Shown one piece after another: positions 1 to 5,768 of a stretch of DNA of 14,790 bases (positions are counted from its first letter, which is position 1; the number at the start of each line of letters is the position of its first letter). Location: IMG/VR virus record IMGVR_UViG_2657245448_000011. One strand, written 5' to 3'. The stretch is from a virus. Taxonomy: Duplodnaviria > Heunggongvirae > Uroviricota > Caudoviricetes. The translations under genes and the position numbers were made by a program. A model generated the notes under the pieces. The model ran no database searches, had not been told where the DNA came from, and worked only from the letters and a program-made list of their open reading frames with translations.

Positions 1-672
1 ATGTGTGGACGTTTCGTTCAATCAATGACGCGTGAAGATTATCTCGCCCTGCTCGCTGTTGAGGCCGAACTCGACATACCATACGATCCCGAACCAATTG
101 GTCGTTTTAACGTCGCGCCAGGCACCAAAGTTCTGCTACTGAGCGAACATGATGAGCAGTTGCATCTTGATCCAGTTATCTGGGGATACGCCCCCGGTTG
201 GTGGGATAAACCGCCACTCATTAACGCACGGTCTGAAACTGCGGCCACCAGCAGAATGTTTAAACCACTCTGGCAACATGGTCGCGCAATTTGCTTTGCT
301 GATGGCTGGTACGAATGGAAAAAGGAAGGTGACAAAAAGCAGCCCTACTTCATTCATCGAGCCGATGGCCAGCCGATATTTATGGCGGCGATCGGCAGCA
401 CACCATTCGAACGTGGAGATGAAGCAGAAGGTTTCCTGATAGTGACAGCTGCGGCCGACAAAGGGCTGGTAGATATACACGACAGGCGGCCTCTGGTACT
501 GTCCCCAGAAGCTGCTCGCGAATGGATGAGACAGGACACTGGAGGGAAAGATGCTGCGGAAATTGCGGCAGACGGTTCCGTACCGGCTGATAAATTTATA
601 TGGCATGCCGTAACGCGCGCCGTCGGGAATGTACGAAATCAAAGCTATGAGCTTATAATGCCGATAAATTAA
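1..672 (+). CDS. yedK: SOS-response-associated peptidase (SRAP), abasic-site processing protein YedK-like
   Basis: Complete 223-aa ORF starting exactly at window position 1. N-terminus MCGRF with Cys2 is the hallmark SRAP nucleophile arrangement; length matches E. coli YedK (about 222 aa). Confidence 0.85.
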   Translation: MCGRFVQSMTREDYLALLAVEAELDIPYDPEPIGRFNVAPGTKVLLLSEHDEQLHLDPVIWGYAPGWWDKPPLINARSETAATSRMFKPLWQHGRAICFADGWYEWKKEGDKKQPYFIHRADGQPIFMAAIGSTPFERGDEAEGFLIVTAAADKGLVDIHDRRPLVLSPEAAREWMRQDTGGKDAAEIAADGSVPADKFIWHAVTRAVGNVRNQSYELIMPIN

Positions 673-690
673 ATCTGTTAGGACTGTATA

Positions 691-1161
691 ATGACAGACA
701 AGGAAATCCTGGAGTGGATCCATAACACTTCTCCGACTATCGAACAGCAGTTGAGGCGCTGGCTGGATGAAATTATGGAGAATGGCCATCAGTCATCCGA
801 GTACGCTCATGGCATAGAGTTACATGACAGGATTCGATTGGCCCTTTTAAGGCCCTACACCAATAAATACAACGGATTTTGTCTTTCGATTTGCACCGTG
901 CGTTTGCCTGCTGAAATTCAGGGAAAAGGATGGTTTAAAAGTTTCCTTAAACTTTGTTGCGAGATAAATCCTTGGCACGATGTAATTTTGGAAGACGTAG
1001 GGAATGAACATCTACTTTCTTTCTGCAAGCGCAACAATTTTCAAGTTCTGGACCCGTTTTATAAAACAACATATGTGGTTAATAAACAGGCTGTAATGAA
1101 TTTGGTAACCAAGCCTCTAGGACGCTATACCGATTATTTAACCCTCAACAAATCAGTGTAA
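691..1161 (+). CDS. yedL: GNAT-family N-acetyltransferase-like protein, possible YedL orthologue
   Basis: 156-aa ORF 18 bp after yedK with AGGA upstream of ATG. Contains GNAT-like motifs (IQGKGWFKSFL and NEHLLSFCKRNNFQV). Recalled E. coli synteny places yedL directly after yedK. Visibly AT-rich compared with flanking genes. Last 28 bp overlap the umuC 3' end convergently. Confidence 0.55.
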   Translation: MTDKEILEWIHNTSPTIEQQLRRWLDEIMENGHQSSEYAHGIELHDRIRLALLRPYTNKYNGFCLSICTVRLPAEIQGKGWFKSFLKLCCEINPWHDVILEDVGNEHLLSFCKRNNFQVLDPFYKTTYVVNKQAVMNLVTKPLGRYTDYLTLNKSV

Positions 1162-2402
1162 CGCGTAGTATACCTTGGAGAGAGCATCTCTCGCTTCATC
1201 TGCCACTGCTGCTGTATACCCTGCCCAGCAAAGTAGAGCGTGCCCCTTCCATCTTTCGCGTTCAGATGATCCAGAACTTCCATCAACTTCTCGCTTCCCC
1301 GGCGAGGCGCATTATCCTCGAACAGATTCAACTGGGCGATGCCCTGACTGAAGAAATCCCCCAGCATTACCCCGGCTTTCTGATATCGGTGTCCGTCTTT
1401 CCATATTGCATCCAGACTCCGCGTCGCTGCGGCAATGATATCCCGGCTGTCCTGTGTCGGGGTGAGCAGCTTCACCGACGCGCTGTTACCGTAGTACGGT
1501 TCGTCCAACGCAAAGGGTGACGTTTTAACAAAAGTAGATATGAAGCGGCAATACTGATGCTCTCCACGTAACTTTTCTGCGGCGCGTGACGCGTAGCTGC
1601 AGATGGCCTGTCGCATAGCATCATAATCCGTAATACGTTCCCCGAATGATCTGGAACAGACAATTTCCTGCTTTACGGGGGCAAATTCCTCCAGTTCAAG
1701 ACAGCGCTCACCGCGCAGTTCGCGCACCGTTCTCTCGAGGACAACATTGAAGTGCTTCCGGATAAAACGAATATCAGTATCAGCCAGATCCAGAACCGTT
1801 TTAATCCCCATTGCCTCCAGCTTTTTGCTGATACGGCGCCCTACTCCCCAGACCTCATCAACCGGAAGCGCAGCCATCAGTTTGCGCTGGCGTTCGAGGT
1901 TCGATAAGTCCACTACTCCGCCCGTCTGTTTCTGCCATTTCTTGGCTGCATGGTTCGCCAGTTTCGCCAGAGTTTTAGTTTGAGCTATTCCAACCCCAAC
2001 CATCAGTCCTGTATTTTGATAAACAGCATCTTTTAATTCCCGCCCAAAATCCTCAAGTACACGACAATTCCTCACACCAGCAAGATCACAGAAAGCCTCA
2101 TCAATTGAATATATTTCGCAGCGGGGCGACATTGCCTCCAGCGTGGTCATCACACGGTTCGACATATCTGCATAAAGCTCGTAATTGCTGCTGAAACAAA
2201 CCACGCCATATCGACGGAATAAGTCCTTCTGCTTAAAATACGGGTCCCCCATTTTCACACCAGCTTTTTTGGCTGCAGCGTTACGGGCGATAACACAACC
2301 GTCGTTATTGGAAAGAACGACAACAGGTTTGTCTTTCAGATCGGGCCGGAATGCCATCTCACAGCTGGCGTAAAACGAGTTCACATCAACCAGGGCAAAC
2401 AT
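1134..2402 (-). CDS. umuC: DNA polymerase V catalytic subunit UmuC (Y-family translesion polymerase)
   Basis: 422-aa ORF; N-terminus MFALVDVNSFYASCE and SIDEAF motif; C-terminus DLLRVK as in E. coli UmuC; high identity over the full length as far as I can recall the E. coli sequence. Start ATG overlaps umuD stop (TGACATG arrangement). Confidence 0.95.
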   Translation of the reverse strand: MFALVDVNSFYASCEMAFRPDLKDKPVVVLSNNDGCVIARNAAAKKAGVKMGDPYFKQKDLFRRYGVVCFSSNYELYADMSNRVMTTLEAMSPRCEIYSIDEAFCDLAGVRNCRVLEDFGRELKDAVYQNTGLMVGVGIAQTKTLAKLANHAAKKWQKQTGGVVDLSNLERQRKLMAALPVDEVWGVGRRISKKLEAMGIKTVLDLADTDIRFIRKHFNVVLERTVRELRGERCLELEEFAPVKQEIVCSRSFGERITDYDAMRQAICSYASRAAEKLRGEHQYCRFISTFVKTSPFALDEPYYGNSASVKLLTPTQDSRDIIAAATRSLDAIWKDGHRYQKAGVMLGDFFSQGIAQLNLFEDNAPRRGSEKLMEVLDHLNAKDGRGTLYFAGQGIQQQWQMKREMLSPRYTTRYTDLLRVK

Positions 2403-2403
2403 G

Positions 2404-2823
2404 TCAGCTTGCCGCTTTCACGATAAACGTCACAACACCAAAGATATCCAGCGTATCTTCGCTGTTTATCGTAATGGGGGCATAAGAGCTGTTTTCAGGA
2501 ACAAGCATAAGTATTGGCTGTAACTGAAGACGTTTAACCGTGAACTCGCCATCAATGGCAGCGATAACAATATCTCCATGTGCAGGCTTTCTGGAACGGT
2601 CGACGACCAGCAAATCGCCATTCCCGATCCCCGCTCCAGTCATAGAATCACCGGACGACTTCACGAAGTATGTCGCACTTGGATGCTGAACTAATAGTTC
2701 ATTGAGATCAATCCGTTGTTCAACGTAATCCTGCGCTGGTGAGGGAAAGCCACATGGGACAAGATCACTAAATAAGGGAAGCGCAACTATCTGGCGCAGC
2801 TCAGTTGGTGAATAAAACTTCAT
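2404..2823 (-). CDS. umuD: DNA polymerase V accessory subunit UmuD (LexA-like self-cleaving protein)
   Basis: Start trimmed to the internal ATG (MKFYSPTEL...) giving 139 aa, the length of E. coli UmuD. Cys24-Gly25 cleavage site and SGDSM serine motif are present. Immediately upstream of umuC. Confidence 0.9.
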
Positions 2824-2843
2824 AATAAACTCACTCATATTTA

Positions 2844-2863
2844 TACTGTTTATGCATACAGTA
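2844..2863. promoter_or_regulatory. LexA operator (SOS box) proximal to umuD
   Basis: TACTGTTTATGCATACAGTA, a perfect CTG-N10-CAG palindrome matching the TACTG(TA)5CAGTA consensus, 21 bp upstream of the umuD start codon. Confidence 0.8.
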
Positions 2864-2865
2864 TA

Positions 2866-2885
2866 TACTGGCATTCAGCACAGTA
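2866..2885. promoter_or_regulatory. Second LexA operator (SOS box) proximal to dinI-like gene
   Basis: TACTGGCATTCAGCACAGTA, again CTG-N10-CAG with TACTG/CAGTA arms, 2 bp from the first box and 16 bp upstream of the dinI-like ATG, directly followed by an AAAGAGGAG ribosome-binding site. Confidence 0.75.
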
Positions 2886-2900
2886 AAGAGGAGTTAAAGC

Positions 2901-3143
2901 ATGTTCGTGGAACTCGTTTATGACAAAAGGAATTTTGATGGGCTGCCCGGTGCAAAAGATATCATTCTGGGCGAATTGACCAGGAGGGTTCACCGGATCT
3001 TCCCCGATGCTGATGTTCGGGTTAAGCCGATGATGACACCGCCAGCGATCAACACTGACGCCAGCAAGCATGAGAAAGAACAGATAAGCCGTACTGTTCA
3101 GGAAATGTTTGAAGAGACTGATATGTGGCTGGTTTCAGATTAA
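2901..3143 (+). CDS. dinI: DinI-family DNA-damage-inducible protein (prophage-type paralogue)
   Basis: 80-aa ORF with strong RBS; resembles DinI in length and in the C-terminal acidic motif (MFEETDMWLVSD versus E. coli DinI ...SADDWFVSE). Preceded by a LexA box. Confidence 0.85.
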   Translation: MFVELVYDKRNFDGLPGAKDIILGELTRRVHRIFPDADVRVKPMMTPPAINTDASKHEKEQISRTVQEMFEETDMWLVSD

Positions 3144-3420
3144 ACGCCTTGAACCGTCATATTGCTTAAGTTAAAAAAATGTGAAATACGTCGTAGACAA
3201 TATCGCCCTGCAATTGAAATAAACTACGCTCCCTGTCAAAAACAGGGATAAATAAATCCGATGATTAAAAAAGCATGTTCTACCGTTGACTGGCCACTTA
3301 TCTGGAAGCCAGATAAGTGGCATTTTTTTTATGGGATTCATATGCACAAGAACGAAATGGAGAAGTTATTTCAGTCGATAGAAGCCCGACTCAGCAGGGC
3401 TGATCTTCCGAAACTGGTGA

Positions 3421-3801
3421 CTAAACACCTGGAAGGGTTCTATTCTGCGCATACCGTCCCTTACCAAACATCCGTACAGCGTAGTACATCACCGCACGCT
3501 TCCACTTTGGTACCCCCAGAACCTGCATCCCGTCCAGAAAAATGAGATCGGCTTCTTTCTTTGTCCGTAGCGCATTATCGTACATGTAATCATGAATGAT
3601 AGCGGCTTTGGCGTACCGACCATCAGGCGGGAGGAATGTCCAGAATAACCGTGGTACGCTCGCCAGATCGGTCACAAACCCAGCCGGGACCTTAATCACA
3701 TCACTGTTGTCATCCGAGAGGTAAAACTCGAAGGGTTCGTACACCCGCCATTTGTAATGACCCAGCATTTCCAGAATCGCCGGGGTGGTGAATTTACTCA
3801 T
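3421..3801 (-). CDS. DUF1353-like phage-associated protein
   Basis: Start trimmed to ATG at 3801 (MSKFTTPAIL..., 126 aa). Motifs VPAGFVTDLASVP and IIHDYMYD resemble the DUF1353 family often found next to phage tail-fibre genes. Family assignment is from memory, not a search. Confidence 0.6.
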   Translation of the reverse strand: MSKFTTPAILEMLGHYKWRVYEPFEFYLSDDNSDVIKVPAGFVTDLASVPRLFWTFLPPDGRYAKAAIIHDYMYDNALRTKKEADLIFLDGMQVLGVPKWKRAVMYYAVRMFGKGRYAQNRTLPGV

Positions 3802-3892
3802 TGACTTGTTCCGTCTGATGGTGAAAAAAATCATTCCACCAACAGGATCATTCCTTTCCCGTTGGTAACATACTAATAGGTTATTTTTCTTG

Positions 3893-3926
3893 CACCGCTC
3901 TCTCCCGTGATTGAGCGGTCTTTTTT
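3893..3926 (+). terminator. Rho-independent terminator-like hairpin (plus strand)
   Basis: 7-bp stem ACCGCTC/GAGCGGT with a 12-nt loop, followed by a run of 7 T. No plus-strand gene ends nearby. Confidence 0.45.
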
Positions 3927-4070
3927 TATTCGCGTATCAGTGCTGTCTCATGTTCTAAAATGAGGCTTTGATCATTGTTTTTCACAGGCTGATGGTGAAA
4001 TAAATCTAACCGCCCTGTGGGCCGGGTGCTGTAGATAAGAAATGTGCATAGCATAATAGCCTCGTAGTCT

Positions 4071-4111
4071 AATGGCCGCTTCTTTCCCAACAGGTGAAGC
4101 GGCCATTTTTT
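4071..4111 (+). terminator. Strong rho-independent terminator-like hairpin (plus strand)
   Basis: 11-bp perfect stem ATGGCCGCTTC/GAAGCGGCCAT with a 13-nt loop, followed by TTTTTTT. No plus-strand ORF precedes it. Confidence 0.55.
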
Positions 4112-5238: not shown

Positions 5239-5472
5239 CTACGTCACGATGACACGGACACTGCCGTCATATCCTGATGCTCTGATCCACAGGCGGTCCG
5301 GCGGTGTGGCCGTGAATTTTTCATTATTCATATTGTGCGCAGGATGCGCGGCGTCAGGTTTCTGGGCGCTGGAGCAGACATCAGCCACCCCGTTTATCTG
5401 GACAAAAACCGTCTGACTGCCGTCCGTCAGCTCCTGCCACTCCCGCGCCACAATCATTTCTCTGGTTGCCAT
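5239..5472 (-). CDS. Hypothetical small protein (77 aa), paralogue of the adjacent 89-aa protein
   Basis: ATG start with GGAGG Shine-Dalgarno. Clear paralogy to the upstream ORF (REWQELTDG versus RAWQQLTDG; WIRASGYDGSVRVIVT versus WVRAAGYDNKVRLFIT). Confidence 0.6.
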   Translation of the reverse strand: MATREMIVAREWQELTDGSQTVFVQINGVADVCSSAQKPDAAHPAHNMNNEKFTATPPDRLWIRASGYDGSVRVIVT

Positions 5473-5498: not shown

Positions 5499-5768
5499 TC
5501 AGTTTTTAATCACAGGAACGCTGGCTGCAGCTCTGTCAGTAATGAACAGTCTGACCTTGTTGTCATAGCCCGCGGCCCTCACCCATGCCTTTGAGGGCGG
5601 GGAAATAATAATGGTTTGTCCCGGGCACCTCAGGGAAGGCGCACACTCTCCCGGCCTGATATCGCTGTCACACAGTTCGATGACACCAAAAAACGCAAAG
5701 ATCATATTCTCCTCACCGTCGGTCAGTTGCTGCCACGCTCTTCCCACTTCCAGTACCCTGGTTCCCAT
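5499..5768 (-). CDS. Hypothetical small protein (89 aa), paralogue of the adjacent 77-aa protein
   Basis: ATG start with GGGAG Shine-Dalgarno, 15 bp after the tfa-like stop. Paralogous to 5239..5472. Confidence 0.6.
   Translation of the reverse strand: MGTRVLEVGRAWQQLTDGEENMIFAFFGVIELCDSDIRPGECAPSLRCPGQTIIISPPSKAWVRAAGYDNKVRLFITDRAAASVPVIKN

Follow-up and report, generated by a model that had tools for sequence, protein, structure and literature searches.

A compact spacer with two predicted LexA operators between umuDC and a divergent dinI-like gene in a lambdoid prophage

The window analysed in this study is the whole 14,790-nt stretch of the IMG/VR virus record IMGVR_UViG_2657245448_000011 (Caudoviricetes). 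It carries umuD and umuC, an error-prone polymerase operon, and, divergent from them, a dinI-like gene. The gap between umuD and the dinI-like gene is 77 bp long (2824-2900), lies between the umuD start codon (CAT, 2821-2823) and the dinI-like ATG (2901), and reads aataaactcactcatattTATACTGTTTATGCATACAGTATATACTGGCATTCAGCACAGTAaagaggagttaaagc. In gammaproteobacteria the box of LexA, the DNA-damage repressor, is a 20-bp imperfect palindrome, TACTG(TA)5CAGTA, with invariant CTG and CAG triplets 10 bp apart. A sequence-only reading of this DNA had placed two CTG-N10-CAG boxes 2 bp apart in the gap. This was borne out, as TACTG-N10-CAGTA has exactly two matches in the window, at 2844-2863 (box 1, next to umuD) and 2866-2885 (box 2, next to dinI). 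When one mismatch was allowed, three matches were obtained against 0.18 expected from shuffled sequences. The spacing is 2 bp between the 20-mers, 6 bp between the CTG...CAG 16-mers and 22 bp between the box centres. The features of the locus are listed in Table 1.

Table 1. Features of the umuDC/dinI-like locus and its surroundings (positions in the window)
Feature	Position	Strand	Description
LexA box 1 (umuD-proximal)	2844-2863		TACTGTTTATGCATACAGTA; 17/20 matches to TACTG(TA)5CAGTA; strong (predicted)
LexA box 2 (dinI-proximal)	2866-2885		TACTGGCATTCAGCACAGTA; perfect arms, G+C-rich inner part, 12/20 consensus matches; weak (predicted)
Palindromic A+T-rich core	2860-2869		AGTATATACT; spans the box junction; predicted -10 common to both divergent promoters
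Predicted dinI -35	2840-2845	+	TTTATA in the window; TTGACA, TTGATA or TTTACA in relatives
Predicted umuDC -35	2882-2887	-	TTTACT; lies within box 2's outer arm and overlaps the Shine-Dalgarno region of dinI
dinI Shine-Dalgarno	2888-2893	+	GAGGAG; 7 nt before the ATG; conserved in the alignment
dinI-like gene	2901-3143	+	80 aa; apparently monocistronic
Intrinsic terminator of the dinI transcript	3293-3321	+	13-bp stem then a T run, about 150 nt past the stop codon
umuD	2404-2823	-	139 aa; full length, uncleaved form
umuC	1134-2402	-	422 aa; catalytic subunit of a Y-family polymerase; starts 1 nt past the umuD stop codon
ORF, 156 aa	691-1161	+	between SRAP and umuC; overlaps the final 28 nt of umuC
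SRAP (YedK-like SOS-response-associated peptidase)	1-672	+	convergent with umuC; Pfam SRAP E = 7e-52

The two palindromes were scored by heterology index (HI). The matrix was symmetrised and built from 25 E. coli LexA boxes; it agrees with eight Lewis-model values published in PMC12211044 (r = 0.995, slope 1.04), and its umuDC, dinI and lexA boxes were later confirmed in real E. coli sequence. Box 1 has an HI of 3.9 (about 3.8 on the Lewis scale), which is in the range of the recA and sulA boxes and well under the limit of about 15 on the Lewis scale for LexA-binding sites. The right half of box 1 is identical to that of the E. coli recA box. Box 2 has an HI of 13.3, below this limit and close to it. 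The claim that both palindromes are SOS boxes was therefore upheld by the matrix for box 1 as a strong site and for box 2 only as a weak one. No other site in the window scores as well as these two; the third-ranking one has an HI of 15.2. In 464 kb of related loci, sites with an HI of 13.3 or lower have a frequency of 4.5e-5 per position, and such a site arises in 0.7% of shuffled 77-nt spacers. The bare CTG-N10-CAG motif is overrepresented in the window (18 matches against 3.4 expected). We rejected this excess as evidence and attributed it to CTG/CAG codon bias, for which reason the minimal motif is uninformative; 16 of the 18 matches score above 15, and just two score below it.

The conservation of homologous loci supports the prediction that both sites are LexA-type operators. 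An alignment of 21 distinct umuDC-type spacers shows the 12 CTG/CAG columns to be invariant, as against variation in 17 of the 20 inner columns (Fisher 2e-6). These spacers are related to one another, so the p value overstates their independence, although the pattern itself is unambiguous. No compensatory stem changes were seen in the aligned spacers. As judged from this alignment, the combination of fixed arms and free inner bases is the signature of a motif contacted by protein and not of a hairpin. The box positions were also conserved in a set of IMG/VR viral loci that was chosen on the DinI protein alone, that is, not selected for boxes: in 77 of the 78 such loci with upstream sequence, boxes stand 15 and 37-39 nt before the dinI ATG. 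In the reverse direction, all 55 viral contigs containing TACTG-N10-CAGTA-N2-4-TACTG-N10-CAGTA have an adjoining dinI-like gene. Genome loci anchored on UmuD gave eight divergent dinI/umuD pairs about 77-80 bp apart, from Citrobacter (two), Kluyvera (four), an unclassified member of the Enterobacteriaceae and a contig that bears the label Chryseobacterium; DNA similarity added a locus in E. coli and a Klebsiella pneumoniae plasmid. All of these carry two boxes in register, 2 or 4 bp apart, and their dinI-proximal box (HI 4.7-9.0) is better than that of the window. The exception is a Yokenella locus, in which the genes are about 280 bp apart and a single box lies at umuD. Chance does not account for the two boxes, as the arms are invariant and the box-to-ATG distances are fixed in relatives. 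The proposal of the sequence-only reading that these are LexA-type sites is thus strengthened by arms that are conserved across genera.

The identities of the flanking genes in that reading were also confirmed by Pfam and NCBIfam profiles and by alignment. UmuD aligns with E. coli UmuD (PDB 8GMT) across residues 1-137 (E = 2e-62) and is recognised as an S24 peptidase (NCBIfam, 166.6 bits; cutoff 110). The Cys-Gly of the cleavage site, the serine of SGDSM and the lysine of FTVK are present, as in E. coli UmuD. UmuC scores 855 bits against an NCBIfam cutoff of 431 and contains the Pfam domains IMS, IMS_C and DUF4113. The marks of a Pol V operon are therefore present, namely a UmuD with its cleavage site and Ser/Lys dyad and umuC immediately downstream. 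A longer umuD ORF that would start at 2874 (156 aa) was rejected, as the homology to E. coli UmuD begins at the ATG at 2823; gene calling in identical contigs yields a length of 139 aa, and relatives do not conserve the upstream ATG.

The dinI-like product matches the Pfam DinI family (PF06183) with 71.6 bits against a cutoff of 24.2 and aligns with E. coli DinI (PDB 1GHH/7YWA; E = 2e-7). Members of this family have some 80 residues and touch the RecA groove with a C-terminal helix of acidic/aromatic character. It reaches only 39.7 bits with the NCBIfam DinI equivalog NF007893, under the cutoff of 111. It is therefore a phage-type paralogue and not an orthologue of the chromosomal E. coli DinI, and the biochemistry of the latter carries over to it by inference only. 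Yasuda and colleagues are said to have found in 1998 that DinI inhibits UmuD cleavage. DinI and UmuD share the binding of the RecA groove (PMC9926225). By alignment to the contact list in the same paper, most RecA-contact residues are kept in the DinI-like protein: four (L13, E24, E69 and W77) are unchanged, three are substituted conservatively (L21 to I, W71 to F, F78 to L), and D76 is lost, being replaced by M.

The promoters of the spacer were predicted by a consensus scan, which finds TATACT on both strands (2864-2869 on the plus strand and 2865-2860 on the minus strand). The predicted plus-strand promoter is TTTATA-18-TATACT (2840-2869) and the predicted minus-strand promoter is TTTACT-16-TATACT (2887-2860). 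The two would overlap and share the core as their -10, and therefore each box would lie inside both promoters: the dinI promoter would have the strong umuD-proximal box in its spacer, and the umuD promoter the weak dinI-proximal one. The sequence-only reading had assigned one box to each gene, and this assignment is not retained under the predicted geometry. Across the alignment, TATATACTG in the core and the column block CAGTAAAGAG at the predicted umuDC -35 are invariant. On one plasmid (L090) in which dinI is separated from umuD and has its own promoter, a lone box stands between an abutting TTGACA and a -10, which matches the predicted arrangement of the window. A candidate umuD -10 downstream of box 1, CAGTATAAAT, resembles the K-12 CAGTATAACT; it was rejected as a general umuD -10, as relatives have CAGTGTCAAT at this position.

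On these grounds, we consider it likely that the spacer is a compact and nearly palindromic bidirectional SOS promoter that is controlled by LexA and carried by a lambdoid prophage. The two 20-bp operators would flank a core that supplies the -10 of both promoters, and each LexA dimer would cover the start site of one promoter and the -35/-10 spacer of its opposite. A single dimer, on strong box 1, should be enough to close both promoters. Weak box 2, 22 bp away from centre to centre, would add tightness, possibly via cooperative binding. Upon DNA damage, activated RecA would stimulate the self-cleavage of LexA, and both transcripts, a monocistronic dinI-like mRNA ending at 3293-3321 and an operon mRNA of umuD and umuC, would be released together. 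Because the predicted -10 hexamers overlap, RNA polymerase is expected to occupy just one promoter at a time, and the relative strengths of the promoters would therefore set the ratio of DinI to UmuDC. Since the strong operator would gate both genes, dinI is predicted to be switched on at the umuDC threshold. In K-12, dinI and umuDC have separate and unlinked promoters. The DinI-like protein would be expected to bind in the groove of the RecA filament and to modulate RecA-dependent steps, which may include the processing of UmuD to UmuD'.

Several points weigh against this interpretation. Box 2 is marginal, with an HI near the cutoff of 15 used in PMC12211044. At the box 2 position, relatives have HI values of about 4.7-12, and the window copy is the poorest variant among the homologues: two substitutions in the box 2 spacer, which reads GCATTCAGCA instead of the common GCATTAAACA, make it the weakest variant found. 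Box centres are 22 bp apart in the window and 24 bp apart in other lineages, a difference that speaks against cooperativity depending on strict phasing. The predicted promoter hexamers have only 9/12 consensus matches. In a control on K-12, the scan called neither the umuD nor the dinI promoter and is thus neither sensitive nor specific, so the assigned hexamers are still predictions. As noted, the DinI-like protein is not the E. coli equivalog but a paralogue. Finally, most phage dinI genes of this type face a distant UmuD-like gene, and at least in phage phiKO2 its product is pre-cleaved and does not depend on RecA for cleavage, so the control of UmuD cleavage cannot be the general reason for the pairing of dinI with umuD.

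The weakness of box 2 raises the question of whether only one operator works. It is possible, but in our view quite unlikely, that box 2 has decayed below functional affinity, that box 1 serves both genes and that the tandem arrangement is ancestral. The HI of box 2 against 7-12 in homologues and the increase of spacer G+C by the two substitutions are in line with such decay. Box 1 already overlaps the predicted -35 and spacer of the dinI promoter and the -10 and start of the umuD promoter, and a single box shared between uvrA and ssb provides a precedent (PMC8072944). However, the arms of box 2 are still perfect (TACTG...CAGTA) and a site of this quality is rare by chance; a similarly weak second site (13.49) stands beside a strong one at the SOS-induced impCAB operon, and the position of box 2 abutting a strong site favours its occupancy. 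It is far less probable that the palindromes are not LexA sites at all and represent chance inverted repeats, a hairpin-forming element or phage repressor operators. Such an explanation could draw on the A+T-richness of the spacer and on the abundance of minimal CTG-N10-CAG motifs in the window. On the other hand, the two best HI scores of 14.8 kb stand side by side, the conservation pattern without compensatory stem changes is not that of a stem, both flanking genes are classic SOS genes, and UmuD, which matches E. coli UmuD from end to end, has no DNA-binding domain.

A further alternative leaves the LexA control unchanged and differs only in the downstream purpose. The module may serve the prophage, the DinI-like protein tuning RecA filaments for the timing or damping of induction or acting in an antirepressor circuit of the Gifsy type, with the linkage to umuD reflecting shared SOS timing. 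We regard this as somewhat doubtful, although it is the most plausible of the alternatives. A LexA-controlled dinI homologue heads the antirepressor operon of the Gifsy prophages (PMC3121763), and the distant or pre-cleaved UmuD partners described above fit a role other than the control of cleavage. The PHROG profile that matches the DinI-like protein covers the DinI half of a longer, 151-position profile, which may be read as Tum-like. However, the window dinI is followed by a terminator and no antirepressor or other second ORF was found 3' of it, the UmuD of the umuDC subtype is full length with an intact cleavage site, and deletion of the Gifsy dinI homologues had no significant effect on induction (PMC3121763). 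A more specific idea is that the unit of two operators and one core acts as a dedicated phage "SOS splitter" that, by loading RNA polymerase in one direction at a time, fixes the ratio of DinI to UmuD or UmuD' for each induction event, with the phage DinI-like proteins being specialised partners of UmuD/UmuD' on RecA filaments. We consider this unlikely. The persistence of the pairing across lambdoid, N15-like and other temperate phages fits a functional coupling of this kind, as does the reversal of the strong and weak box order between the umuDC type and the type with a distant S24 partner. If it were true, these proteins would have a role distinct from that of chromosomal DinI, for example in gating the assembly of the Pol V mutasome or prophage induction.

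The preferred reading, a LexA-controlled bidirectional promoter, is placed in its context by the distribution of the module. The module is common in enterobacterial prophages and is also found in phage-plasmids; the arrangement is widespread. Among the 78 DinI-anchored phage loci, the partner is a distant S24 protein (41-58% identity to UmuD) in 53, and 15 are of the umuDC type found in the window. In the distant-S24 subtype from IMG/VR (L147-L226), the strong box is the dinI-proximal one, so that the strong/weak order is reversed relative to the umuDC subtype; the distal box is usually TACCGGATAAAAACACAGTA, in which CCG replaces CTG, and some loci have a gap of 314-323 bp rather than 81 bp. 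Matches to the module were present in 240 of 5426 complete E. coli genomes, and just three of them hold most of it. One remnant was inspected, that of NZ_CP046396 (5952-6414), beside which there are about 235 other E. coli genomes with matches. In the inspected genome, a pseudogene of the umuC C-terminal part (DUF4113) abuts a C-terminal fragment of DinI at the end of a lambdoid prophage, and a deletion has therefore removed umuD, the operator and the 5' ends of both genes. Two records stand outside the enterobacteria by name. The contig CACSKA010000005.1, labelled Chryseobacterium sp. 18061, has an enterobacterial SRAP-umuDC-dinI module with 81-88% protein identity, and the dinI of the record "Elizabethkingia phage EKP1" is about 71% identical in DNA to that of the window; both records are probably mislabelled or contaminated. 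On the K. pneumoniae plasmid NZ_CP095244 (41.7 kb; 3846-4088), the start of an abutting 80-aa hypothetical gene overlaps the dinI stop codon. This gene recalls the dinI-antirepressor arrangement of Gifsy, and the window differs in having no such gene.

The window represents the right-hand end of a lambdoid prophage, probably from Citrobacter, with SRAP-umuC-umuD and the divergent dinI. The tail genes M/L/K/I/J are followed by tail fibre genes, a few small ORFs, dinI, umuDC, the 156-aa ORF and SRAP. In three NCBI assemblies, identical copies adjoin yciE-yciF-yciG-trpA. The UmuD protein has its nearest relatives in Citrobacter werkmanii and C. youngae (92-94% identity). In one E. coli genome, a different prophage terminates, at a tRNA-Pro gene, in the four-gene module (DNA identity 91%); the homology to this copy stops at the dinI stop codon, and the copy lacks the 156-aa ORF, the ends of SRAP and umuC overlapping directly. 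This ORF is called as a gene in identical contigs and had no match in Pfam, NCBIfam or PHROG. SRAP accompanies the module in most loci of the umuDC type. No LexA box was found upstream of SRAP in L002, a longer copy, or in L001. The 3' UTR of the dinI-like gene is about 150-185 nt long (3144-3330) and contains a small hairpin, CCCTGT-caaaa-ACAGGG, at about 3232-3248 in addition to the strong terminator. The 3' UTR of the chromosomal dinI of Klebsiella yields the small RNA DinR, a repressor of ftsZ (PMC10907235). A search for Rfam families found none in the dinI 3' UTR or elsewhere in 2600-3600 of the window. Between the tail fibre genes and the cargo region lie two adjacent paralogous ORFs of 77 and 89 aa (5239-5472 and 5499-5768, minus strand), both matching phrog_4772, a family of unknown function.

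The closest known system is that of phiKO2, an N15-like linear plasmid-prophage; our comparison rests on the annotation of its GenBank record NC_005857. As in the window, genes for a DinI-like protein (gp22) and a UmuD'-like protein (gp23) lie back to back just beyond tail gene J, separated by about 80 bp of intergenic DNA in which the record marks a LexA site and, for the two genes, overlapping -10 signals. The order of TTGACA, A+T-rich core, LexA box, AAGGAG and ATG is also the same. The -35, -10 and LexA features of the record (1467-1616) fit the sequence only with an 18-nt shift, and one -35 is apparently 100 nt off; when shifted, the features read TTGACA, TATAAA, TATACT and, as LexA box, TACTGTATGCATATACAGTAT, and so give the promoter model that is proposed here. 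The DinI proteins of phiKO2 and the window are close relatives, and both begin with MFVELVYDKRNF. The window thus has the phiKO2-type layout, in which dinI and an umuD-like S24 gene diverge beyond the tail genes of a temperate phage from a gap of about 77-82 bp that holds at least one LexA box and a shared A+T-rich -10 core; dozens of IMG/VR contigs have it as well. The two systems differ in that phiKO2 lacks UmuC and SRAP, has a single full box accompanied by the remnant of a half-site, and encodes a UmuD' in pre-cleaved form whose first residue is the one following the cleavage site, whereas in the window both boxes have full arms and UmuD is full length, with UmuC, the additional ORF and SRAP also present.

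A parallel on plasmids is the impCAB operon of TP110 and IncI-type plasmids, in which ImpC is a DinI homologue and ImpAB are UmuDC homologues under LexA control, as predicted for the window. The LexA sites of impCAB have HI values of 1.60 and 13.49, and ImpC and ImpA rise under SOS (PMC12211044). However, impC, impA and impB are co-directional in one operon and the sites are 27 bp apart, while the genes of the window are divergent, its predicted promoters overlap and its sites are 22 bp apart. With dinI on the opposite strand and followed by its own terminator, the window resembles impCAB in logic only.

The sequence-only reading had also set the locus apart from that of E. coli K-12, and this distinction proved correct: in K-12, dinI and umuDC are unlinked, have a single box each and are not flanked by one another, dinI being located between bssS and pyrC. 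In an E. coli chromosome, umuDC adjoins dsbB/hlyE. The K-12 dinI box (published HI about 6.2) is weaker than the umuDC box (about 2.8). The likeness between the systems is in the LexA consensus, in a umuD-proximal box that abuts the promoter and in a dinI box that ends 15-19 nt before the ATG. The lexA gene of K-12 resembles the window in another respect, as its two 20-bp boxes almost abut (1-bp gap, centres 21 bp apart against 22-24 bp in the module), but its promoter works in one direction, and each of its boxes has medium strength. In the Salmonella prophages Gifsy-1, -2 and -3, the dinI homologue is directly repressed by LexA from a box at a fixed short distance from the ATG. These loci differ from the window in having a single box, an antirepressor gene and irsA after dinI, a location beside the replication genes and no umuD partner.

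The association of SRAP with umuDC is also known. A SRAP gene beside a umuDC pair was described by Aravind, Anand and Iyer in 2013, with the family occurring in prophages as well (PMC3765255). In these SRAP-UmuC-UmuD neighbourhoods, DinI appears only as a protease substrate, with no dinI partner and no operator described, in contrast to the window. The location of umuDC beyond tail fibre genes recurs in isolated phages such as vB_SosS_Oslo. A full-text literature search for the exact tandem operator found nothing specific.

In this module, umuDC cargo travels with a dinI paralogue under a shared and very compact promoter region, predicted to be bidirectional and controlled by LexA, and both genes are predicted to come on together at the threshold of the strong operator. 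The module may be useful as a naturally occurring, simple case in which to study divergent promoters that overlap and have two sites for a repressor. The arrangement itself is already known, being widespread in prophages and phage-plasmids, annotated in phiKO2 and paralleled by impCAB, and the conceptual gain over phiKO2, impCAB and the Gifsy dinI operons is small.

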